Positions 1-9,127 of a DNA stretch of 64,000 nt are shown one piece after another. Source of the DNA: an uncultured Gammaproteobacteria bacterium. Its GTDB lineage: Bacteria > Patescibacteriota > Microgenomatia > Levybacterales > GWA1-39-11. Under the pieces are notes generated by a model, which saw only the letters and a program-made list of their open reading frames with translations, did no database searches and was not told where the DNA came from. Within the stretch, counting starts at the first letter, position 1, and every line of letters starts with the position of its first letter. The stretch is from positions 1,056 through 65,055 of the forward strand of contig CAZYWG010000011.1 of assembly GCA_964651815.1 (NCBI GenBank). Direction: 5' to 3'. The position numbers and the translations under genes are program-made.

Positions 1-952
1 ATCAACTAATATTGCACTTTCTATCTCATTTGCTATTTTTTATATTGGGTGTCTAGCGACACTTATAATTGTAAACGATACTAAAAAAATAGTAGCCCAT
101 GCTCTATTACCGGTAATCTTTGGGATAGGTATTTTTCTTTGCATATACAGGATATTGTTGGTCTACTTTCCTCCAATAGTTCCTTTAAATGGATACCAAC
201 TGGTTTCTTCATTCTATGGGTCCCATAACCACCTTGGGGATTTTTTGATTCTTCCGCTCACAGCAATTTTTTATATCTTAATGAATAAGAATAATAAAAT
301 ACACCCTCTCATACTCTTATTATTATCAATATTTTTTGCACCTTACTTTCTTTTTTCATTTTCAAGGAGCGCATATTTTTCTGTTATCGTAACATTAATT
401 TTCATGTTTTATTATTTTGTAAAAAAAGGAAGAATAAGACTGATTGAATTCAGAACTTTACTTATGATTTTGGTTATATGTATTCTCACCTTATTTATGT
501 TTTCTGTTTCAATTTTCTCAAGTCAAAAAAATTTAGTTTCTGAAATTAATACTCATCTGGTTGAGAATAACAACCTTTCATATAAAGCTCCGTTTGGTGC
601 CAGGGGAGAATATGTAAGAGAAGCTATACTTGCAATTTTTTACAAACCCATTTTTGGTGTTGGTCCGGGAAATTTTATAGAAATTTCAAAAAAGTATAAT
701 CCTATTCAGGGACTTTGGGCAGAGTCTTCTCATAATCTATTCTTAAATATAATGGTTGAAGATGGTATTGCAGCTGGGTTGATACTTTTTATTATAATTG
801 TTGAGATCTTCAGGAAGTCAGAGAAGAACATTTATTTCTTTATGGCACTAGCCTTGCTTATAAATTTTCAGACGGATTACACTTTTAGAATATACTCACT
901 GTTCTTTTTATTTTTTGTTTTGTGTGGGTTGTGTCAACAAAAAGAAAGTTAG
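1..952 (+). CDS. O-antigen ligase (Wzy/WaaL-like) family membrane protein, 5'-partial. The frame is open back to the window start.
   Basis: Multi-TM protein with the motif ...GVGPGNF...AESSHNLFLNIMVEDGIAAG typical of the O-antigen ligase family. No in-frame stop between position 2 and the Met at 155. Confidence 0.55.
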   Translation, partial: STNIALSISFAIFYIGCLATLIIVNDTKKIVAHALLPVIFGIGIFLCIYRILLVYFPPIVPLNGYQLVSSFYGSHNHLGDFLILPLTAIFYILMNKNNKIHPLILLLLSIFFAPYFLFSFSRSAYFSVIVTLIFMFYYFVKKGRIRLIEFRTLLMILVICILTLFMFSVSIFSSQKNLVSEINTHLVENNNLSYKAPFGARGEYVREAILAIFYKPIFGVGPGNFIEISKKYNPIQGLWAESSHNLFLNIMVEDGIAAGLILFIIIVEIFRKSEKNIYFFMALALLINFQTDYTFRIYSLFFLFFVLCGLCQQKES

Positions 953-1536
953 TTAGAAGGAATACAGGGCTTCATAACTACAGAGGAAACAGGTTTGTTA
1001 TTCTGAAAATAAACTCCATTTAAAATATTTCCATCGGTACCAGAATAAATATCAAAAGAAACTTTACTATTTGCAAGTCTGGTTTTACCAATAAGAGATA
1101 TTTTTACTAGTTCTGGTTGAATTTTTCCTTTATATACATAAATAACAGAAGCCTCTCTTCCTTTAATTTCTTTAACTATGAATCCTGAAGGTACTTGGTT
1201 TCCCCATTTACCTTCCCAAGCCCCAACAAAGGATGGTTGTGTTCTGCTAGCATTCGGAACAGGATTGCCAAAATCAGGTGCTACACCCGGAGGAATAAAC
1301 TGACACTTTGCAATATTTGCTGTAGTTTGTGAACCATTACTACCAGAATTTATTTGGTATTGAGTGTTATTTTTTGCTTGGTGTGGTAAAACAGGTATTG
1401 AAGACGGTAAAATGTTAAAAAAATTAAAGGTTATGACAATTAATATAACTAATACTGCAAGACAAACTCCTATAATAATTAATCTTTTTGATGACCCTTG
1501 TGTATTTGGTGTGGTATTAGGTTCGTTTGAATCCAT
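949..1536 (-). CDS. Hypothetical membrane-anchored protein, N-terminal TM then Ser/Gly/Asn-rich region. Start chosen at the internal Met (MDSNEP...).
   Basis: ORF 949..1758. The hydrophobic segment LIIIGVCLAVLVILIVITFNFF follows the Met at 1536. The upstream part of the ORF looks non-coding (AT-rich, low complexity). Confidence 0.4.
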   Translation of the reverse strand: MDSNEPNTTPNTQGSSKRLIIIGVCLAVLVILIVITFNFFNILPSSIPVLPHQAKNNTQYQINSGSNGSQTTANIAKCQFIPPGVAPDFGNPVPNASRTQPSFVGAWEGKWGNQVPSGFIVKEIKGREASVIYVYKGKIQPELVKISLIGKTRLANSKVSFDIYSGTDGNILNGVYFQNNKPVSSVVMKPCIPSN

Positions 1537-1772
1537 AAATAAATAGTAGGATAGTTTACAAGGTTTGTCAATATTACATATATAAACTCCTACGTTTATA
1601 ATACAAATATTGATATTTGTATTTTTTTGTATATAACAATTTTTAAATGTAAGAAATTGTGTAAAATAAAAAGCGTTTTTTAATAATGTCCACATTGGCT
1701 CATTATAAATAGTGCAATTTGAAATAATATACATTATTAATTTCAATTTGCGTAGCAAATACGGACTATGGG

Positions 1773-3617
1773 TTGGCGATTATTAAGCGTAGTAAAATTA
1801 ATATGGAGACAAATATTAGCGGAAAATTTAGTGAAGTTAAGAGAACTTTTATAGTTTCTGTAAGGCTTTTGAAAACTATTTGGAGCTTTGACAGTAAAAT
1901 TCTTGTATTTCAGTTTGTAATAACCGGCGCACAGTCACTAATACCCTTTATAAACGCATTTATCTACGCATTAATTATTGATCTTATTGTAAGAAACATT
2001 GGAAGACCATTCAACTCATCAAACCTAATTGTATTGCTCGGAGTGAGATTTTTAACTTTGCTTGTGCAATTTTCAATAAATTCTATTCAAAGTTATATAG
2101 ATCTTGTAACGTGGTCAAGACTCCCAATTTATTTATATCAGTTGATTTTAGGTAAAATTACAAACCTTGAGGTTGAATACTTTGAAAACCCAAAATTCCG
2201 TGATGCACTACAAAAAGTCCGTGAAAGTTATGCATGGATGCCATTAAATATGTATACGAATATTTTTGGGGTGATTCAAGCTTTAATCCAACTCGCAACG
2301 GCTTTTATATTATTATCTTTTTTAAACGTTTTTCTTGCAATAGGAATAATAGCTGCTGCAATGCCTTCTTTTTTAATCCAAATCAAATATTCAAAAACTC
2401 TTTGGGGCGTCTGGGATAAAAATTCACCTCATAAAAAAAGATTTTGGTATTTATCGGATCTAATTCAGCACAGGGAAGCTGTTAAAGAAATGAGAGTATT
2501 TGGGACTTCCAATAAATTCTTAAATGAGATATCTAGGATTCAAGAAAAATTTGCAAATGAAAATCTTGCTGTCGGGAAAAAAAGACTTAGGGATTCCTCT
2601 ATCTTAAGTTTTATAAGTTCAGTAATTTTTATTTTGATTGAGGGAACCATAGCATTTTTTACAATATTAGGCAAAATATCGCTAGGGGGGCTTTCATATT
2701 TCACATTTGTTGTTTGGAATTTTGAAGGCGGTGTGGCATCTTTTTTTAGCAGCGTATCAAAGACGTTCAATCAAAGTTTATACGTTGAAGACATTTTTAA
2801 AGTCCTAGACCTTCCGCAAAAACTACAAAAAGCTGAAAAACCTATTAAAATCAATACGGCAATTACTCCTAAAATTGAATTTAAAAATGTATCTTTTAAA
2901 TACCCGGGTTCAAAAAAGTATACGCTTAAAGATTTTTCCCTAACTATACATCCGGGTGAAAAAATAGCGTTTGTGGGCGAAAATGGTGCAGGGAAAACGA
3001 CAATTATAAAACTTCTTGCAAGGTTCTATGATGTCTCAAGCGGGGAAATATTAATTGATGGGATTAATATCAAAGAATTAGATCTTAACTCCTGGTACAA
3101 GACGATAGGTGCTATTTTCCAAGATTTTATAAAATATGAATATACATTAGCTGAAAATATCCATTTAGGCAAAATTTACGAGCCGTTTAACAAGTCAAAA
3201 ATAATATCCGCAGCAAAACTTTCTGGAACTGACAAAATCGCAGAAAAATTGGAAAAAGGTTATGATCAAATGCTTGGACTTACCTTTTCCGGAGGAACAG
3301 AATTATCTTTAGGTCAATGGCAAAAAGTTGCGCTAGGTAGGGCATTTTTACGCGATGCTCCAATTTTAATTTTAGATGAACCAACTGCCTCGATTGATGC
3401 AAAAGCTGAAAAAGAAATTTTTGATAAAGTTGAAAGATTGAGAGGAAATAAAACCGTTATAATAATTTCCCATAGGTTTTCGACTGTCAGAAATGCAGAC
3501 AAAATTTTTGTAATTAATAAGGGTAAAATTGCCGAAGAGGGAAATCATAAAGAATTGTTAGCAAATAACAAGATTTATGCCAAATTATTCAAAGTTCAAG
3601 CAGAAAAGTATCAATAA
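1773..3617 (+). CDS. ABC exporter, fused permease and ATPase (MsbA/ABCB-like). Candidate exporter of the adjacent RiPP.
   Basis: N-terminal 6-TM region. Walker A GENGAGKTT, signature-like FSGGTELSLGQWQK, Walker B ILILDEPTASID. Confidence 0.85.
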   Translation: MAIIKRSKINMETNISGKFSEVKRTFIVSVRLLKTIWSFDSKILVFQFVITGAQSLIPFINAFIYALIIDLIVRNIGRPFNSSNLIVLLGVRFLTLLVQFSINSIQSYIDLVTWSRLPIYLYQLILGKITNLEVEYFENPKFRDALQKVRESYAWMPLNMYTNIFGVIQALIQLATAFILLSFLNVFLAIGIIAAAMPSFLIQIKYSKTLWGVWDKNSPHKKRFWYLSDLIQHREAVKEMRVFGTSNKFLNEISRIQEKFANENLAVGKKRLRDSSILSFISSVIFILIEGTIAFFTILGKISLGGLSYFTFVVWNFEGGVASFFSSVSKTFNQSLYVEDIFKVLDLPQKLQKAEKPIKINTAITPKIEFKNVSFKYPGSKKYTLKDFSLTIHPGEKIAFVGENGAGKTTIIKLLARFYDVSSGEILIDGINIKELDLNSWYKTIGAIFQDFIKYEYTLAENIHLGKIYEPFNKSKIISAAKLSGTDKIAEKLEKGYDQMLGLTFSGGTELSLGQWQKVALGRAFLRDAPILILDEPTASIDAKAEKEIFDKVERLRGNKTVIIISHRFSTVRNADKIFVINKGKIAEEGNHKELLANNKIYAKLFKVQAEKYQ

Positions 3618-3724
3618 TAATTTGCCGGATTTAATCATACATATTGATGAAATTTGCAAAACTATAGTTAAGAGTACTGATTAAATTACTTTGCAAATAA
3701 ATTTACTTATGTTATTATTTCCGA

Positions 3725-4531
3725 ATGAAAGAAATATATGTGGAAATTGGAGGTTTTGTTATAAGAATTATTCTTGGAAAGAAGACCCTGGATCCACACG
3801 TTTCTTATTTGATCAATAAACTTGAAATTGAACTATTAATATACCTTAGAGGTTTTATAGTACAGAACAAACGAAAAAGATTTGATTTTGAAATTGAGTT
3901 TGAATATATAAAGGAGCCCGGCGTATTGAGTTTACAAAACGAAGATAAGATTTATATACCAATTTTTCAGAAAGTTACTGATAAAAAATTCAAAACTTAC
4001 TATAATTTGAATACATCTCAACTCGAATTAATACTCAAGTATGCCCTTTTATCACTTTTAAAGAAAAATTCAGGCTTTGGAATTCACGCATCTGTTGCAA
4101 AAGTAAATGGCAAAGCATATCTTTTTTTGGGTGAAAGTGGAGCTGGAAAATCTACAATAGTTGAGCTTATTAAAGAAGTTTTTCCAACAATTAATGACGA
4201 TATGACTTTTATCAGAAAAATAAACAGTGAGTATTGCGTTTTTCAAACTCCATTTAGCGAGAAGCCTTGGTGGATAAACAAGAGTAAAAAATTCGTCAAA
4301 GTGAATAAAATTATCTTTATTCATAAATCACGCTCATCTGATAGCAATAAAATAAATGACAAAAAAATTATAGCTAAGAGGGTTTTAGGTCAAGTTATGG
4401 TTGCGCAACACTTAGATAGTTATATAATTAAAAATGTTACAAATTTTACAAACTTTATTCAAAATTTTTATGATTTAAATTTTGAGAAAGATGTTGATAA
4501 AACTATTAGTTTAGTATCAAAATTGAAATGA
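3725..4531 (+). CDS. HPr kinase C-terminal-domain-like P-loop protein (HprK-related kinase). Putative RiPP-tailoring kinase.
   Basis: P-loop LFLGESGAGKSTIVELIKE resembles the HprK C-domain Walker A. The stop overlaps the PqqD-like gene start by 4 nt (ATGA). Firmicute lasso-peptide clusters encode HprK homologues that phosphorylate a precursor Ser (established knowledge). Confidence 0.6.
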   Translation: MKEIYVEIGGFVIRIILGKKTLDPHVSYLINKLEIELLIYLRGFIVQNKRKRFDFEIEFEYIKEPGVLSLQNEDKIYIPIFQKVTDKKFKTYYNLNTSQLELILKYALLSLLKKNSGFGIHASVAKVNGKAYLFLGESGAGKSTIVELIKEVFPTINDDMTFIRKINSEYCVFQTPFSEKPWWINKSKKFVKVNKIIFIHKSRSSDSNKINDKKIIAKRVLGQVMVAQHLDSYIIKNVTNFTNFIQNFYDLNFEKDVDKTISLVSKLK

Positions 4532-4782
4532 AATATTTTCTTAAAAAGGGGTTTATTTTTCAAAAACATCATGAGATAACTAACATAATTGATGGAGATA
4601 AATCAATACTTCATTCTTTCAACGAGGTAGGGTCTTTTATATTTGAGCAGATAAGAAAAGGAGCTGACCATGTAAAAATTATCGAACGAATGACTAAGAA
4701 ATATAAAATAAGTAAAGAAGTTGCCGAAAAAGACTTAACTGAATTTATATCTAGCCTTAAGAAAAAACAAATAATTTCTTAG
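4528..4782 (+). CDS. PqqD-family protein (RiPP precursor recognition element, RRE, peptide chaperone).
   Basis: 84 aa, ...HSFNEVGSFIFEQIRKGADHVKIIERMTKKYKISKEVAEKDLTEFISSLKKKQII matches the PqqD-like wHTH pattern. Translationally coupled to the kinase-like gene. Confidence 0.7.
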   Translation: MKYFLKKGFIFQKHHEITNIIDGDKSILHSFNEVGSFIFEQIRKGADHVKIIERMTKKYKISKEVAEKDLTEFISSLKKKQIIS

Positions 4783-6015
4783 GCTTGCAAGTGATTTCCT
4801 AAACTGGTACCAAAGAACGAAGTAAATAACTTCCAGGTTTGTGAATATAAATAACTTTCTGATTTCTGATCTTGGAGAAAGTGCATATAATATTTTAAAT
4901 CTTTTCACACCACTAGCTACTCTATAGTCTTCATTAAAAATATTAGTGCCCACCAGATCTTTTTTTATTTCGTTCATAACATCCTTTTTAGGCTTAATAT
5001 GGTTTAAAAATTTGAGTGGCATATTAAATTGATAATACTTTTGAAGTAACAGAAGAACAGGATAGATAAAATTATTAATTTTAAACTCCTCAATAAGTTC
5101 GGCAAGATCATCATAGTTTATTTTTTCAGTTTTTAAAATCTTTACTAGGAGATCATATCTATATGTGCCTGTGAAGTTGTGGTGAAATAGATGTAGCATG
5201 AGATAAACAATCAAGTTTTCAGGAGACAAAATTTTGAAATCTTGATTCAAAACCCTAATAGAGCGGTGTTCAACTAACAATTTTTTTGTAAATTCAATTG
5301 TTAGTTGATTTTGGTATAAAGAGTTGAGGTTTCCTATCTGAGTAAGCAAAAATACAGCTTCTAAGTGTATATCTAGGTAAACTGGGATGTTATTAATTAT
5401 TTTATAAAAGGTTATCTCCATATCACGAGATTTTAGCTTTTTTTGAAGTTTAGAATAAGAAGTATCTGAGATATTAAATTCTAGTCTCTTGAGGATTCTA
5501 ATTACTTTATATAAATCTTTTTTATTGATCAAAATGTCGCAGTCAGAATATATCCTTTTTGCATGGTGACCTTCATAGAAAAGATGTAAGGGTAAACCCT
5601 TGAGAAAAACATACGCTATTTTTTCTTTCTCAAAAGTATTCTTTGTTTTTACTATCTCCTGAAAATATAAAGTAGATTGGAATAGATATATATCGTTAAT
5701 ATTTATTACTCGTTTTTGTTTGCCAACGATTCTTGTTACTTTTTCAACAATTCCTAAGATAGAAGATGGATAAACTTTACCATCTGAAGTCAAGTTATTA
5801 TCCCCACGAGTAATAACGTAGCTTAAATGTTTATAAATTATTCGGTGCGTGAAGATTTGCCCTTCTTTTTTGACTGAGATGATGTCATTTACTTTTAAAT
5901 TACGGAAGTTCTGTTTTTCTATACTTATGACATCTCTGTCAAGCAAAACAGGAAACATACTATTCCCGAAAGTTTTAATTCTCAGTTCTGTGCGAGTTTT
6001 TGTAGGATGCGACAC
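4735..6015 (-). CDS. Fusion protein. N-terminal S26/S24 (signal-peptidase/LexA-type) serine peptidase domain plus C-terminal nucleotidyltransferase-fold domain. Putative leader peptidase/tailoring enzyme.
   Basis: N-term GNSMFPVL ... ITRGDNNLTSDGKV resembles the SPase I/S24 Ser-Lys peptidase motifs (GxSMxP, GDNxxxSxDS). No TM segment. C-term region ...EGHHAKRIYSDCDILI... resembles a GS...DxD nucleotidyltransferase motif. Lies immediately upstream (25-nt gap) of the precursor gene. Confidence 0.55.
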   Translation of the reverse strand: MSHPTKTRTELRIKTFGNSMFPVLLDRDVISIEKQNFRNLKVNDIISVKKEGQIFTHRIIYKHLSYVITRGDNNLTSDGKVYPSSILGIVEKVTRIVGKQKRVININDIYLFQSTLYFQEIVKTKNTFEKEKIAYVFLKGLPLHLFYEGHHAKRIYSDCDILINKKDLYKVIRILKRLEFNISDTSYSKLQKKLKSRDMEITFYKIINNIPVYLDIHLEAVFLLTQIGNLNSLYQNQLTIEFTKKLLVEHRSIRVLNQDFKILSPENLIVYLMLHLFHHNFTGTYRYDLLVKILKTEKINYDDLAELIEEFKINNFIYPVLLLLQKYYQFNMPLKFLNHIKPKKDVMNEIKKDLVGTNIFNEDYRVASGVKRFKILYALSPRSEIRKLFIFTNLEVIYFVLWYQFRKSLASLRNYLFFLKARYKFS

Positions 6016-6040
6016 TTGCTAGATTTTAACACAAGAATAA

Positions 6041-6316
6041 CTATTGGCACCCACAGCTGTAGCATGATCCGTCACCTGCATCACATCCGCAGGGTGAACC
6101 ATTAGACGAAGAGCAATCCCCGCCTCCTGAGTTACAAGTTCCTCCCCCGCAAATATCACAAGTCGCACCTTGAGATGCGCATTCGCATGATGATTGGGCA
6201 AAGACTGCCGGGACAATTGAGTTACTGACTGAATTCAAAAACCGACTACTCATAAAAAAACTAAACTTAATCTTTTGGGATTTAACACTTGGTTTTTCGT
6301 ACGAATTTATGCTCAT
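6041..6316 (-). CDS. RiPP precursor peptide. Leader about 41 aa plus a Cys/Ser/Gly-rich 50-aa core (TOMM/LAP-type).
   Basis: Translation MSINSYEKPSVKSQKIKFSFFMSSRFLNSVSNSIVPAVFAQ-SSCECASQGATCDICGGGTCNSGGGDCSSSNGSPCGCDAGDGSCYSCGCQ. 11 Cys, 12 Ser and 13 Gly in the last 50 residues. Sits directly downstream of the SagB-like and YcaO genes. Start uncertain: an alternative Met lies 21 codons in, and no strong RBS is seen for either. Confidence 0.7.
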   Translation of the reverse strand: MSINSYEKPSVKSQKIKFSFFMSSRFLNSVSNSIVPAVFAQSSCECASQGATCDICGGGTCNSGGGDCSSSNGSPCGCDAGDGSCYSCGCQ

Positions 6317-6369
6317 TTCAATAAAGTATATGCTGAAAAAAACATCATGTCAATAAAGTTTACCATTTA

Positions 6370-7125
6370 CTATACTTCCCCTATTGCCATTGTATATATT
6401 ACAGATTCTTCCAAGACGTCTAACTCCAAGTGGTTGTTTATTACATCATCTACATATCCACCAATTGCACATGCTCCAATTTTCTGACTTACGGCGTTCA
6501 AGTAAAAGTTCTGTGCCATATGTCCGGCCTCCTCTAGCATTAGTCTATACCCTCTATCTCCATACTTCATTGTGTTTCTATTAAATACTGCAGATATAAA
6601 AATTAGGCCTCCTGTTTTTTTGATCCACGGGATATTTGTAATTTTTGGAAGTAGATCTTTTTTATTGAATTTAAACATCTTTTCAAAACTATTATTCTGC
6701 ACAAAATAGTGATAAGAAGCATTGTCAAGTTCACTTTTCAAACTCAAAAAATAAACCTCTAAAGGAAAGCGTGCTCCAGGGGATGGGTAAAAACGTCTTT
6801 CCGAAGGTGTGTTATTAGGTATTCCGGCACTATAATAAAAAAGGTTACTTAATTTTTTTAAGCTCAGTTTTTTATTTGAGAAGTCACGTACTGACCTTCT
6901 TGTATAAAGGGCATCTGAAAGTAGAACGTTGCTTGCGGAAGGTTTTGGTAATTTAATCTCACTAAATCTTCCATAGCTTTTGTAATAAATCTTCTTCCAT
7001 TCCTGCGGCCAATAAATGGTGGATGAAATTCGTCTCATTTTCTTAATTTTTGTAAAGTTATGGAACCTTTGAAATTCAGTGGTAAGCTTTCCTGTTAGAT
7101 GGTAAATTGGTTTATATTTTTTCAT
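6370..7125 (-). CDS. SagB-type (nitroreductase-family, FMN) azoline dehydrogenase.
   Basis: Nitroreductase hallmark ALYTRRSVRDF and C-terminal KIGACAIGGYVDDVINNHLELD. Start overlaps the YcaO stop by 4 nt. Confidence 0.75.
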   Translation of the reverse strand: MKKYKPIYHLTGKLTTEFQRFHNFTKIKKMRRISSTIYWPQEWKKIYYKSYGRFSEIKLPKPSASNVLLSDALYTRRSVRDFSNKKLSLKKLSNLFYYSAGIPNNTPSERRFYPSPGARFPLEVYFLSLKSELDNASYHYFVQNNSFEKMFKFNKKDLLPKITNIPWIKKTGGLIFISAVFNRNTMKYGDRGYRLMLEEAGHMAQNFYLNAVSQKIGACAIGGYVDDVINNHLELDVLEESVIYTMAIGEV

Positions 7126-8381
7126 AAAAATGGGTGAGGAATTGGATTCAAACCGTCAAATTTTTTTCCAAAAAAATTTGCAACTTTTTTTAGTCTTTCA
7201 ATATTTACAACTTTTTCCTTCTCATGCTCAATTAAATATAGGGGATTAAGTCCAGGTATCATTACATAATAAGAAAGAAAGTTTAGTTTTCTAAATTCGT
7301 CCACTGTGGAATCCACGTAGTACACTTTATAACCAAGTTTTTTTAATTTTTTAAGTACTTTAGCAAGTTCTGATTTAATTTTTAAGTTAAATTTTTGAGC
7401 TTGATAATCAACTCGGCGTCCTGCAATCAAAAATTCAATATTTTTTAGACTAGATGAAGAAATCCAATATTTTGCCCTATTTGGAAACAAACCATCAGCA
7501 GTTTTAAAGTCAAAAGAGATTTTACCTTGTATTAACATATTTTTTGTATATAGCCTAGTCATCAGTGTTTCGCCAGCAGAGGCTATTATTGCATCTACGC
7601 TTTTAAACCCTGCCTTTCCTCCTAGACTAATGGCGGGACCCAGACCAGTTCTATCAATTGCCACTGATAGAAAAGAAGGAATACCGAGATCAGTTGTAGC
7701 ATCTAAAACGTATAGATCAAGATTAAATTTATGATATAAGTCTAGAATATATTTAATTCTTTTGTCTTTTATAGCTGATAAGTTAACAATTGGAGGAGAG
7801 ATTTTGTTGAGGTATACTCCCATTAGGGAATCCCTTTCAATTAATTCATAAATACCATTTAACAGTGCCATTTCGTGTGATGCTCCACCTGCTGAACCAT
7901 TAGTATTATGTGGAAAATCAAGATGAGGTTCATTCTTTAACCTTTGGTAATTAAGGTAAACAAACTGTGCAGGAATGAGTTTATTTTTATTTGTAAAGAC
8001 TTCTACCCCCTTGACCCATCCAAACTTGCTTGATTTGACTTGTGGATCTTTTGAAAAATAGCTTAGGTTAAGGAAACTTTCATTATTTTTAGGAATTTTT
8101 TTTATGATGGATTTTCTTTTGAAACTATAATTACAAAATCGCTCCATTGCTTCCCAAATAGATTTCATCACCGCTGATTCCTCATCAAAATATGATACAC
8201 CAGACCCATGAAGGTCACTTGAATTGACCTTTCCATCAGAATACTTTTTATTTGTTTTAAAATTAGTGCTAAAACTTTTTTGTCTTGGCTCGTCGTTATA
8301 TTGTGTGTTTTTTTGTACTTTTGGCTCTAGACCCAAATCATAGAGTTGATCCAAAAGAGTTATTAATTGGCCTTTCTTCAT
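7122..8381 (-). CDS. YcaO-domain cyclodehydratase (TOMM D-protein-like), standalone with no fused E1-like domain.
   Basis: YcaO motifs SAVMKSIWEAMERF and TNGSAGGASHEMALLNGIYELIERDS. 419 aa. Confidence 0.8.
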   Translation of the reverse strand: MKKGQLITLLDQLYDLGLEPKVQKNTQYNDEPRQKSFSTNFKTNKKYSDGKVNSSDLHGSGVSYFDEESAVMKSIWEAMERFCNYSFKRKSIIKKIPKNNESFLNLSYFSKDPQVKSSKFGWVKGVEVFTNKNKLIPAQFVYLNYQRLKNEPHLDFPHNTNGSAGGASHEMALLNGIYELIERDSLMGVYLNKISPPIVNLSAIKDKRIKYILDLYHKFNLDLYVLDATTDLGIPSFLSVAIDRTGLGPAISLGGKAGFKSVDAIIASAGETLMTRLYTKNMLIQGKISFDFKTADGLFPNRAKYWISSSSLKNIEFLIAGRRVDYQAQKFNLKIKSELAKVLKKLKKLGYKVYYVDSTVDEFRKLNFLSYYVMIPGLNPLYLIEHEKEKVVNIERLKKVANFFGKKFDGLNPIPHPFL

Positions 8382-8560: not shown

Positions 8561-9127
8561 CTAAAGAATTAAAACAGCACCGCCTACAATCATGAATATA
8601 ACTGAAATGAAACCAACTGTAAGTGTAGACGTAACAGAACCTGTAGGTTTTATTGTTGGCTGTGGGGTTGCAGGAGGTATTGTAGGGGCCGTCGTTGAGG
8701 TAGGTGAAACACCTGCTTGGGTTTGGCAAAGAAGTTGGAAAGACCCAACAGGTCCTGCTGTTCCACAAGAATTAACTGCTGAAACGTCACATTTATAAGT
8801 CTTTCCTTGTGTAATAGAAAAGGAAATATTTGTTGTTGCGGCCGGGACTTGTTGATTGTATATTGTTGTGCTAGTTTCAAGTTCTGTTACAACTACATTA
8901 TAATTTGCTGCTGAGGCGACAGTCCCCCAAGTACAACCGGCTTGTGTAAAATTACATTGGGTCCCTACACAGTTTGGATAAACAACTTCAACATTTTGAA
9001 CAGCATCAGGAGTTGTACATGCTGGAGTTTGGGCAAGAGCTTTAGGCGAATAAAATGATAAAGCGATCAGAAATCCCCCAATAAAAACCAGAATGGGCAA
9101 AGATAATTTAAATATTTTCCTCAGCAT
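8561..9127 (-). CDS. Secreted/surface protein. Signal peptide, Cys-containing beta-rich domain, Pro/Thr-rich linker, C-terminal TM anchor.
   Basis: N-term MLRKIFKLSLPILVFIGGFLIALSFYSPKALAQ. 8 Cys in the mature domain. PTIPPATPQPTIKPT linker. C-terminal hydrophobic VGFISVIFMIVGGAVLIL. Confidence 0.45.
   Translation of the reverse strand: MLRKIFKLSLPILVFIGGFLIALSFYSPKALAQTPACTTPDAVQNVEVVYPNCVGTQCNFTQAGCTWGTVASAANYNVVVTELETSTTIYNQQVPAATTNISFSITQGKTYKCDVSAVNSCGTAGPVGSFQLLCQTQAGVSPTSTTAPTIPPATPQPTIKPTGSVTSTLTVGFISVIFMIVGGAVLIL

Follow-up and report, generated by a model that had tools for sequence, protein, structure and literature searches.

A predicted azole-type peptide gene cluster with lasso-like accessory genes in a Levybacterales bacterium

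The seven genes and their precursor peptide

The stretch of DNA analysed here (hereafter the window) comprises 64,000 nucleotides of contig CAZYWG010000011.1 (GenBank assembly GCA_964651815.1, positions 1,056 to 65,055 of the forward strand), deposited under the name of an uncultured Gammaproteobacteria bacterium and placed by GTDB in the Levybacterales (Patescibacteriota; Microgenomatia). An earlier note, made from the letters alone, had drawn attention to seven genes near its left end and read them as a cluster for a peptide made ribosomally and modified post-translationally (RiPP) of the linear azol(in)e-containing peptide (LAP) or thiazole/oxazole-modified microcin (TOMM) kind. All seven open reading frames (ORFs) are present with the positions and strands given there, and their sequences support an azol(in)e-type, LAP/TOMM-like assignment. 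The plus-strand and minus-strand arms converge, the gene for the peptidase-nucleotidyltransferase fusion overlapping that of the PqqD protein by 48 nt at their 3' ends (4735-4782). Overlaps of 4 nt join the stop of the kinase-like gene to the start of the PqqD gene and the YcaO gene to the SagB gene, an arrangement consistent with translational coupling. The coordinates of all features are collected in Table 1.

Table 1. Genes, domains and sites of the cluster, with positions in the window and the basis of each assignment
Feature	Position	Strand	Basis
ABC (ATP-binding cassette) exporter, fused permease and ATPase, MsbA/bacteriocin-exporter-like half-transporter	1773-3617	+	PF00005, 9e-31
HprK/ScmC-like P-loop protein, putative precursor Ser/Thr kinase, 268 aa	3725-4531	+	Fold match and motifs
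Standalone PqqD-family RiPP recognition element (RRE), putative leader-binding chaperone, 84 aa	4528-4782	+	PF05402, 44.1 bits
S26B-type peptidase::PF14907 nucleotidyltransferase fusion, 426 aa	4735-6015	-	PF14907, 70.8 bits
Fusion, peptidase domain, aa ~16-97, Ser19/His57/Asp72	5725-5970	-	Motif alignment
Fusion, PF14907 nucleotidyltransferase-fold domain, aa ~106-426, D158-x-D160	4738-5700	-	Pfam match
Precursor peptide, 91 aa	6041-6316	-	ORF and leader homologues found by hidden Markov model (HMM)
Precursor leader, aa 1-40	6197-6316	-	YxxPxΦ motif, KIKFSFF, V38-F39-A40 junction
Precursor core, aa 41-91 (51 aa and stop): QSSCECASQGATCDICGGGTCNSGGGDCSSSNGSPCGCDAGDGSCYSCGCQ	6041-6196	-	11 Cys, 10 Ser, 12 Gly, 2 Thr
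Promoter-like site TTGACA-17-TATACT	6325-6353	-	Consensus match 11/12, directly upstream of precursor ATG
SagB-type FMN (flavin mononucleotide)-dependent azoline dehydrogenase	6370-7125	-	TIGR03605, 108 bits
YcaO cyclodehydratase, single-domain	7122-8381	-	PF02624, 140 bits

The two enzymes that define the cluster type passed the family checks proposed for them, with their catalytic motifs intact. The YcaO protein is recognized by PF02624, and the dehydrogenase exceeds the TIGR03605 cut-off of 78.4 bits and matches PF00881 at 2.7e-18. All 40 homologues compared share, without exception, the ATP/Mg residues of the YcaO protein (E77, E80, R81, E179, E182, R183 and D184). A C-terminal PxPxP motif is diagnostic of azoline-forming YcaOs; the window protein ends in such a motif, NPIPHPFL, and (I/V)PHPF(L/V) is conserved in its homologues. 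It belongs to a divergent clade, to which, of the solved structures, the YcaO domains of the cyanobactin heterocyclases TruD, MusD and LynD come closest (1e-16), but it lacks their fused E1-like/RRE half; against the SagD-family model TIGR03604 it scores 171 bits, so that the cut-off of 219.25 is not reached. Relatives of the dehydrogenase in the PDB include McbC and CyaGox, and its Lys-Tyr motif, KYGxRGYR, is retained in every bacterial homologue compared, while an archaeal copy (in locus L009; related loci are numbered with this prefix) keeps KYG and YR. Azole-forming YcaOs normally use an E1-like or Ocin-ThiF partner. As the earlier note had observed, there is none among the seven genes; nor is there one in six Pfam-annotated bacterial neighbourhoods analysed here, the rest of the genome not having been searched. 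A role of the YcaO protein in McrA thioamidation was rejected in view of the adjacent SagB gene and Cys-rich precursor and of a TIGR03266 score of 77 against a cut-off of 365. A 2025 survey of CPR (Candidate Phyla Radiation) and DPANN genomes labelled YcaO-containing RiPP clusters of CPR bacteria as McrA thioamidation genes (PMC12153355), a label that is very unlikely to suit loci with the gene content seen here.

The precursor peptide has no match among known RiPP families in Pfam or NCBIfam. Its core had been credited with 11 Cys, 12 Ser and 13 Gly; the predicted 51 residues hold 11, 10 and 12. The expected conservation in relatives was found: an HMM of the leader retrieved homologous precursors in about 35 loci, L001, L002, L004, L006 and L007 among them, and a precursor is present in 12 of the 15 fusion-anchored loci that carry YcaO. 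The leader contains Y6-E-K-P9-S-V11, a lasso-type YxxPxΦ RRE motif, YxxPxL being the motif bound by the B1 RRE of lasso-peptide systems (PMC10368454). In 38 of 39 non-redundant precursors YxxPx[LIVM] is followed by KK[IV]x[IL]xxF, and in at least 34 a Φ-Φ-Ala junction stands, after a variable spacer, immediately ahead of a hypervariable core. In the V38-F39-A40 junction of the window precursor position -1 is Ala and position -3 is hydrophobic, which fits the -3/-1 rule of type I signal peptidases, and the leader has no hydrophobic core of the signal-peptide kind. The cores vary extremely between homologues, yet in most YcaO-bearing loci they are rich in Cys, Gly and Ser. Their kinds comprise Cys-rich cores (with YcaO present or absent), very short tails without Cys, GGYYGQ repeats, and a short core followed by a Hint domain.

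The promoter-like site ahead of the precursor gene is the best of 45 sigma-70-like matches between 800 and 9500, the total of such matches not exceeding chance. It lies within the 53-nt spacer between the SagB and precursor genes, and the -10 element ends only 8 nt ahead of the precursor ATG, which no obvious Shine-Dalgarno sequence precedes, so that the transcript of the precursor gene may have little or no untranslated leader.

Several further precursor genes in related loci differ from this plan or from their public annotation. Tandem precursors in L004 (10617-10943 and 11028-11363, plus strand) were called in the wrong frame by the public gene caller, as were those in L010, and the L004 pair is listed as Val/Ala-rich proteins of 91 and 77 aa; both true versions end in Ser, where HprK-type kinases of lasso systems classically act. 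Another tandem pair with the same leader, L027:146-517 and 542-931 (+), has GGYYGQ-repeat cores devoid of Cys and belongs to a locus without YcaO, the same chassis thus being combined with core chemistry of a very different kind. Five precursors, L002:13317-13949(+), L017:3459-4034(+), L019:~1785-2324(+), L058:2091-2690(-) and L066:6746-7333(-), consist of a very short Cys-containing core and a Hint domain extending from C[FV] to (V/I/A)H(N/S), and four of the five lie in loci with YcaO and SagB. Splicing by these domains is unlikely because in four of the five the terminal HN is followed by a residue other than C, S or T, L017 having HS and then Ser. From its sequence the Hint domain looks like one that would act by N-terminal cleavage of the hedgehog or bacterial intein-like type, producing a core with a C-terminal thioester and thus serving as a self-cleaving 'follower'.

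Peptidase-nucleotidyltransferase, P-loop, PqqD and exporter proteins

The description of the 426-aa protein as a fusion of peptidase and nucleotidyltransferase was borne out for both halves. PF14907 (NTP_transf_5) is matched at more than twice its gathering score of 31.2, and in an AlphaFold2 (AF2) model (predicted local distance difference test, pLDDT, 88.8) this domain resembles LnuA, MenT1 and ANT(2'')-Ia, ANT(2'') being also a published structural neighbour of PsmN. The fold modelled for the N-terminal domain resembles LexA, UmuD and SEC11. A profile of 25 fusion homologues matches human SEC11A/C with an E value of 1e-4, and the SM-x-P, H-R and GDNN motifs align residue by residue, from which a peptidase of the Ser-His-Asp S26B type is deduced. 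Residues M20, P22, H57, R58, G71, D72, D158, D160, D215 and H217 are invariant in the 25 sequences, and S19 and E219 are conserved in at least 90% of them. The same three motifs are found in the signal peptidases of eukaryotic/archaeal type (SEC11, archaeal signal peptidase I (SPase I) and Bacillus SipW; MEROPS S26B), whose cleavage rule the inferred junction of the window precursor would also satisfy. The window domain differs from these enzymes in being only about 85 aa long, unanchored and fused to a nucleotidyltransferase domain, in that its predicted substrate leader has no h-region, and in scoring 37 bits against the archaeal SPase I model TIGR02228, below the cut-off of 51.85. There is no hydrophobic segment ahead of the Ser motif; lacking an N-terminal membrane anchor, the peptidase domain is predicted to be cytoplasmic.

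The public gene call for this protein, P0068 (407 aa), begins at Met20, inside G-x-S-M-x-P, and so loses Ser19; the window ORF runs for 426 aa from a GTG start, the region 5959-6015 being missing from P0068. About a fifth of the 150 best representatives of the fusion family start at profile position 23, and the frequent deletion of the catalytic Ser by gene calls helps to explain why the peptidase domain has been overlooked.

The P-loop protein was less easily placed. Matches to PF07475 (E value 2e-4) and ScmC (TIGR04249, 5e-7) are weak and below the cut-offs, the scores and cut-offs in bits being 29/125 for ScmC, 12/200 for HprK_rel_A, 13/200 for HprK_rel_B and 28/240 for HprK. Across 14 members of the family ScmC is matched in all and scores best, followed by HprK_rel_A (12/14) and HprK_rel_B (9/14), again always below the cut-offs, and the precomputed Pfam family PF27840 'ScmC' matches the window protein (P0188) and its homologues. 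A sequence search of the PDB gave matches to the Walker A motif of ABC transporters only, and structure prediction was needed to place the protein. The AF2 model (pLDDT 92.6) has ATP-PEPCK as its best Foldseek match in the PDB (2e-7), and the HprK/P structures 1knx, 1kkl and 1ko7 follow at 4e-6 to 2e-5. The protein has an LH121xS motif, a Walker A motif (G136ESGAGKST144) and a DD metal site (N157DD159), with H121, G141, K142, S143, T144 and D158 invariant in 14 homologues; PsmK, a lasso kinase, cannot do without the corresponding DD pair (PMC6993621). The HprK-like kinase proposed earlier thus stands as regards its HprK/PEPCK fold and motifs, whereas the PF07475 and HprK family scores are sub-threshold.

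No such doubt attaches to the standalone RRE, as PF05402 recognizes the PqqD protein far above its gathering score of 23.4; its best NCBIfam match, to lasso_PqqD_Bac, reaches 34.8 bits and so falls short of the cut-off of 80. The best NCBIfam matches of the ABC exporter are to MsbA, type I secretion and NHLP exporters, all below the cut-offs. Family scans found no C39 peptidase domain in it, and a separate leader protease would hence be needed. In L002, in L004 and in about 10 of the fusion-anchored loci the module is adjoined by a close homologue of the exporter.

The locus shares features with several characterized systems. It resembles the LAP/TOMM systems (microcin B17 McbBCD, streptolysin S SagBCD, phazolicin) in that its YcaO has the ATP/Mg residues intact and ends in a Pro-rich stretch, that its dehydrogenase is of the SagB/McbC type and carries the Lys-Tyr motif, and that a precursor rich in Cys, Ser and Gly and an ABC exporter lie alongside. 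It differs from them in that a discrete PqqD protein takes the place of an E1-like (McbB/SagC) or Ocin-ThiF partner or of an RRE fused to YcaO, in the lasso-type YxxPxΦ leader, in a YcaO below the SagD-family cut-off, and in the HprK-like kinase and PF14907 domain as obligatory companions. Other LAP systems employ TldD/E, CaaX-like or C39 proteases, whereas the leader peptidase here appears to be S26B signal-peptidase-like.

The second likeness, suggested previously for the kinase and nucleotidyltransferase and upheld here, is to the phospho- and glyco-lasso systems (paeninodin PadeK; pseudomycoidin PsmK/PsmN; Bradymonas BsfK/BsfN/BsfB1), which have the same accessory quartet of discrete PqqD, HprK-family kinase, PF14907 'nucleotidyltransferase' and ABC exporter. 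The YxxPxL-type motif of the leader and the best match of the PqqD protein point the same way. In these systems the HprK-type kinases PadeK, PsmK and BsfK phosphorylate linear lasso precursors at a C-terminal or internal Ser, and the PF14907-like PsmN is required for the addition of hexose to phospho-Ser. The window cluster has no lasso cyclase (the Asn-synthetase-like C protein), AsnB-like genes occurring near the module in five related loci that all lack YcaO. A B2 transglutaminase-like protease was not found among the window genes, the six Pfam-annotated neighbourhoods or 16 recurrent neighbour families scanned; in its place the window has the S26B half of the PF14907 fusion. Some 35 residues separate the recognition motif from the cut site, against 17 in lasso precursors, and the kinase is nearer to ScmC than to HprK_rel_A/B, all below the cut-offs. 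That ScmC is the best-scoring curated family also recalls the SynChlorMet (SCM) cassette, in which ScmC and a PqqD-family protein form a pair alongside maturases of the radical SAM/SPASM kind. The window differs from it in having no radical SAM or SPASM enzymes and in its low ScmC score (29 against 125 bits); radical SAM genes do occur in L008, L061, L075 and L079.

Gene content of related loci

The YcaO family is small, with 67 matches among 5.8 billion proteins, mostly in metagenome-assembled genomes (MAGs) of CPR bacteria. YcaO-anchored neighbourhoods at 74, 55, 41, 37 and 36% identity were read, and each of the five has SagB, kinase and PqqD genes as well as a precursor homologue, so that the co-occurrence postulated for homologous loci extends, in independent genomes and beyond what chance would give, to 36% identity. 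The fusion gene lies within the stretch read in four of the five, and in L007 a fusion homologue (P0105) is located elsewhere on the same contig; two unannotated L007 proteins of 383 and 427 aa were considered and are not fusion homologues. At 32% identity a Roizmanbacteria locus retains the kinase and PqqD, and a Heimdall-archaeal locus has YcaO and SagB only.

The fusion family is far larger, with 378 matches in an indexed search and, in an exhaustive one, 244 clusters at 50% identity (E <= 1e-30). Its lineage assignment rests on the named subset of matches, which belong to Microgenomates-group CPR bacteria (Roizman-, Gottesman-, Levy- and Beckwithbacteria) or to generic Patescibacteria-group MAGs. 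Many module loci (L012, L014, L018, L020 and others) are titled 'uncultured Gammaproteobacteria bacterium', probably a placeholder taxonomy for bulk-submitted MAGs, and one 3-kb contig (L067) is labelled Omnitrophota.

HMMs made from the proteins of the cluster were used to scan 78 fusion-anchored loci, all taken from species-representative genomes, 29 of these loci having about 10 kb on each side of the fusion gene (the full-flank loci). In the latter, PqqD is present in 27, the kinase in 25, both in 24 and a leader-type precursor in 20, while YcaO and SagB occur in 10, always as a pair. Because the kinase and PqqD are so much more constant than YcaO and SagB, we regard the kinase, PqqD and fusion as the chassis and YcaO/SagB as an exchangeable part. 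The earlier note had presented this trio as an unusual tailoring set of a TOMM cluster; the assignment to cluster type holds, given the YcaO and SagB matches and motifs and the conserved precursor, and its emphasis on tailoring add-ons has to be reversed, with YcaO/SagB found in only about a third of the loci. Judged from sequence, the trio and its leader family appear to form a Microgenomates-wide chassis related to the accessory genes of lasso peptides. Gene order is stereotyped, the fusion gene (+) converging on PqqD (-) and kinase (-), and the 3' ends of fusion and PqqD overlap in 45 of 49 loci. These convergent coding overlaps measure 4-150 nt in related loci (median about 60), and their conservation, which is unusual, may reflect antisense or termination coupling. 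In a rough neighbour-joining (NJ) tree of the fusion, YcaO-positive loci are interleaved with YcaO-negative ones rather than forming the single clade that was considered, a result of little weight since the tree is star-like and poorly resolved.

These counts bear on the possibility that the locus is an ordinary LAP cluster of YcaO, SagB, protease and exporter, beside which the kinase-like gene and the nucleotidyltransferase domain would be non-functional or unrelated neighbours. YcaO, nitroreductase and peptidase sufficed for the published description of LAP clusters in CPR genomes (PMC7298704), and the window core has no C-terminal Ser for a kinase of the PadeK kind. Such neighbours would not be expected, however, to keep invariant or nearly invariant catalytic residues in divergent homologues, as both kinase and fusion do, nor to keep their order and convergent overlap or to travel as a pair (kinase and PqqD) in most full-flank loci; their retention in genomes of roughly 1 Mb likewise argues for function, and we hold this alternative to be very improbable.

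A second alternative gives the pair a different task, the HprK/ScmC-like ATPase and PqqD together being the missing partner of YcaO, responsible for substrate delivery and cyclodehydratase activation, with no phosphorylation of the peptide. The lack of an E1-like or ThiF gene in the cluster and the six annotated neighbourhoods would be explained in this way, a kinase-like gene and PqqD are found in every bacterial YcaO neighbourhood read over more than 10 kb, and the 4-nt overlap of the two genes is consistent with translational coupling. The pair nevertheless accompanies the fusion in 19 classified loci without YcaO within 8-10 kb, from which it follows that its role is not specific to YcaO; moreover, real phosphotransferases have the same Walker A motif, DD site and fold, and homologous lasso proteins are proven peptide kinases. 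A kinase acting on the peptide is thus preferred here, and the missing-partner explanation appears improbable.

Near the chassis there are variable modification genes, encoding sulfatase-family proteins, arylsulfotransferases, radical SAM enzymes, carbamoyltransferases, QueC-like::PqqD fusions and AsnB-like proteins. A second sub-cassette consists of a QueC-like PP-loop ATPase::PqqD fusion, a radical SAM enzyme and sometimes a stand-alone S26 domain, and either this sub-cassette or AsnB-like genes stand beside the chassis in L061, L075, L079 and L084 and also in L036, L040, L064 and L065. The AsnB-like proteins (GATase and Asn_synthase domains, about 620 aa), found in the five YcaO-less loci mentioned above, could be lasso-cyclase-like enzymes or ordinary AsnB.

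Envelope-type genes are also frequent around the module. A Wzy_C/O-antigen-ligase-like gene and a gene for a 275-aa N-terminally anchored protein (weak DUF4330) are each present in 19 of the 29 full-flank loci and GT1 in 8; Wzy_C examples are L013, L016, L022-L024, L045 and L060, and the window has its own at 155-952 (+). A further anchored protein of about 180 aa is often encoded directly upstream of the precursor in related loci. In the window, small envelope-type proteins are encoded on either side of the cluster (949-1536 and 8561-9127, both on the minus strand), one of 188 aa with a signal peptide, conserved Cys residues and a C-terminal anchor and the other of 195 aa and N-terminally anchored. 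Both genes were considered as cluster members and rejected, having homologues in only the two or three closest genomes (L001, L004), for which reason they are taken as its boundaries. The G+C content is 0.29-0.34 in the cluster region (1-8000) against mostly 0.36-0.40 elsewhere in the window. The closest relative, L001, has the cluster with the same genes on its flanks (DinB-type polymerase, purine genes, Wzy_C), and any acquisition must therefore predate the split of the two lineages.

It could accordingly be proposed that the chassis matures, by the same biosynthetic steps, an envelope-associated or signalling peptide (e.g., a phospho-glycosylated surface peptide connected with the Wzy_C/O-antigen-ligase-like, glycosyltransferase and anchored proteins encoded nearby) and not a diffusible antibiotic. 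The frequencies of Wzy_C, the 275-aa protein and GT1, the very wide retention of the family in reduced genomes and the presence of an ABC exporter in only a minority of loci would all suit such a product. The association with Wzy_C and glycosyltransferases may, on the other hand, be plain synteny in one lineage, only the closest relatives of the window keep its flanking ORFs, and hypervariable cores and tandem precursors are seen more typically in RiPPs with antagonistic or signalling roles. We consider an envelope-bound or signalling product unlikely and return to that of a secreted, modified peptide.

A proposed maturation pathway and its significance

We consider it likely that the locus is a biosynthetic cluster for a ribosomal, heavily modified and secreted peptide matured by the following pathway, whose chemistry is inferred from gene content, intact catalytic motifs, folds, the conservation of precursor and leader motifs and the co-occurrence of the genes, which the analysis shows. 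The 91-aa precursor would be transcribed, possibly from its own promoter, and the PqqD protein, standing in for the E1-like or Ocin-ThiF partner, would bind Y6-x-x-P9-x-V11 of the 40-aa leader and present the peptide to the enzymes, a recognition that we deem quite probable in view of the motif. The ATP-dependent YcaO would cyclodehydrate Cys, and perhaps Ser/Thr, of the core to azolines and the FMN-dependent SagB would oxidize these to azoles; of all steps, azole formation is the one we expect with most assurance, and it is very likely to take place. The HprK/ScmC-like kinase would phosphorylate Ser/Thr of the core, at one position or more, while the precursor is still linear, and here the motifs and lasso homologues incline us only somewhat in favour. 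The PF14907 domain would then add a group to the phosphate or to a hydroxyl, whether hexose, as with PsmN, or a nucleoside monophosphate, each such group being doubtful when taken singly. The PsmN analogy makes decoration of phospho-Ser likelier than simple AMPylation of the peptide, the kind of nucleotidylation envisaged before. The soluble SEC11-like peptidase domain would cut after V38-F39-A40, exposing an N-terminal Gln, and its use as a leader peptidase acting at Φ-Φ-Ala seems fairly probable. Finally, the ABC transporter would export the product.

Several observations weigh against parts of this account. The P-loop protein is under all curated kinase cut-offs, the literature yielded no demonstrated activity for any ScmC-type protein, and the window core lacks the C-terminal Ser that is the classic site of PadeK and PsmK and with which 9 of the 39 family precursors end. 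The YcaO is under the curated SagD-family cut-off (171 against 219 bits), an azole-forming YcaO working with a discrete PqqD alone is itself a putative arrangement, and Cys-rich cores also occur in several YcaO-less loci, so that Cys richness alone is no proof of azoles. Domains of the S24/S26 type can also be autoproteolytic or regulatory (LexA-like), and the chemistry of PsmN is either direct glycosyl transfer or nucleotidylation followed by the action of host enzymes. As for the comparison of loci, many are short contigs and the co-occurrence counts are therefore lower bounds, and the NJ tree behind the argument for modularity is poorly resolved.

Azole-forming clusters in reduced genomes, which the earlier note considered noteworthy, had been described before. 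In 2020 Sharrar et al. (PMC7298704) described a LAP cluster of the Microgenomates that comprises a YcaO, a nitroreductase, a 'peptidase' and a precursor of 84 aa, and 93 other genomes of CPR bacteria gave them 110 LAP clusters. Their Microgenomates cluster is very probably of the same type as that of the window. We found no description of a kinase, PqqD or nucleotidyltransferase in CPR LAP clusters, which is weak evidence because the search was short on subscription journals, nor, mostly outside such journals, of the shared lasso-type leader and the YcaO-less majority. No description of an S26 domain as a RiPP leader peptidase was found in the same literature either, and S24/S26 goes unmentioned in a 2023 review of leader proteases; the RRE-Finder paper covers neither kinases nor a YcaO paired with a discrete RRE, and no relevant paper on PF14907, NTP_transf_5 or ScmC came to light.

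On a bolder reading, which we rate short of probable, the product of the window would combine azoles with phospho-(glyco/nucleotidyl) groups, its YcaO would make azoles with a stand-alone RRE and no E1-like partner, and the fusion would contain the first dedicated S26-family RiPP leader peptidase. The locus bears on whether an azole-forming YcaO can be served by a discrete PqqD-type RRE, on a possible recruitment of an S26B signal-peptidase fold as a cytoplasmic leader peptidase, and on what PF14907 enzymes do to phosphorylated peptides. On the same bolder reading, the family may represent an undescribed Microgenomates-wide RiPP class defined by a YxxPxΦ leader, a PqqD RRE, an HprK/ScmC-like kinase and a SEC11-like peptidase::PsmN-like enzyme, into which swappable modules (YcaO/SagB, radical SAM, QueC-like::RRE, AsnB-like, sulfatase/sulfotransferase and Hint-domain 'followers') would be plugged. 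The locus also shows that lasso 'accessory' genes can make up a self-standing maturation chassis in which a lasso cyclase has no part. The genomes of CPR bacteria, at about 1 Mb, hold very few biosynthetic clusters; that hundreds of Microgenomates lineages nevertheless retain this module suggests that its role, ecological or symbiotic, is an important one.

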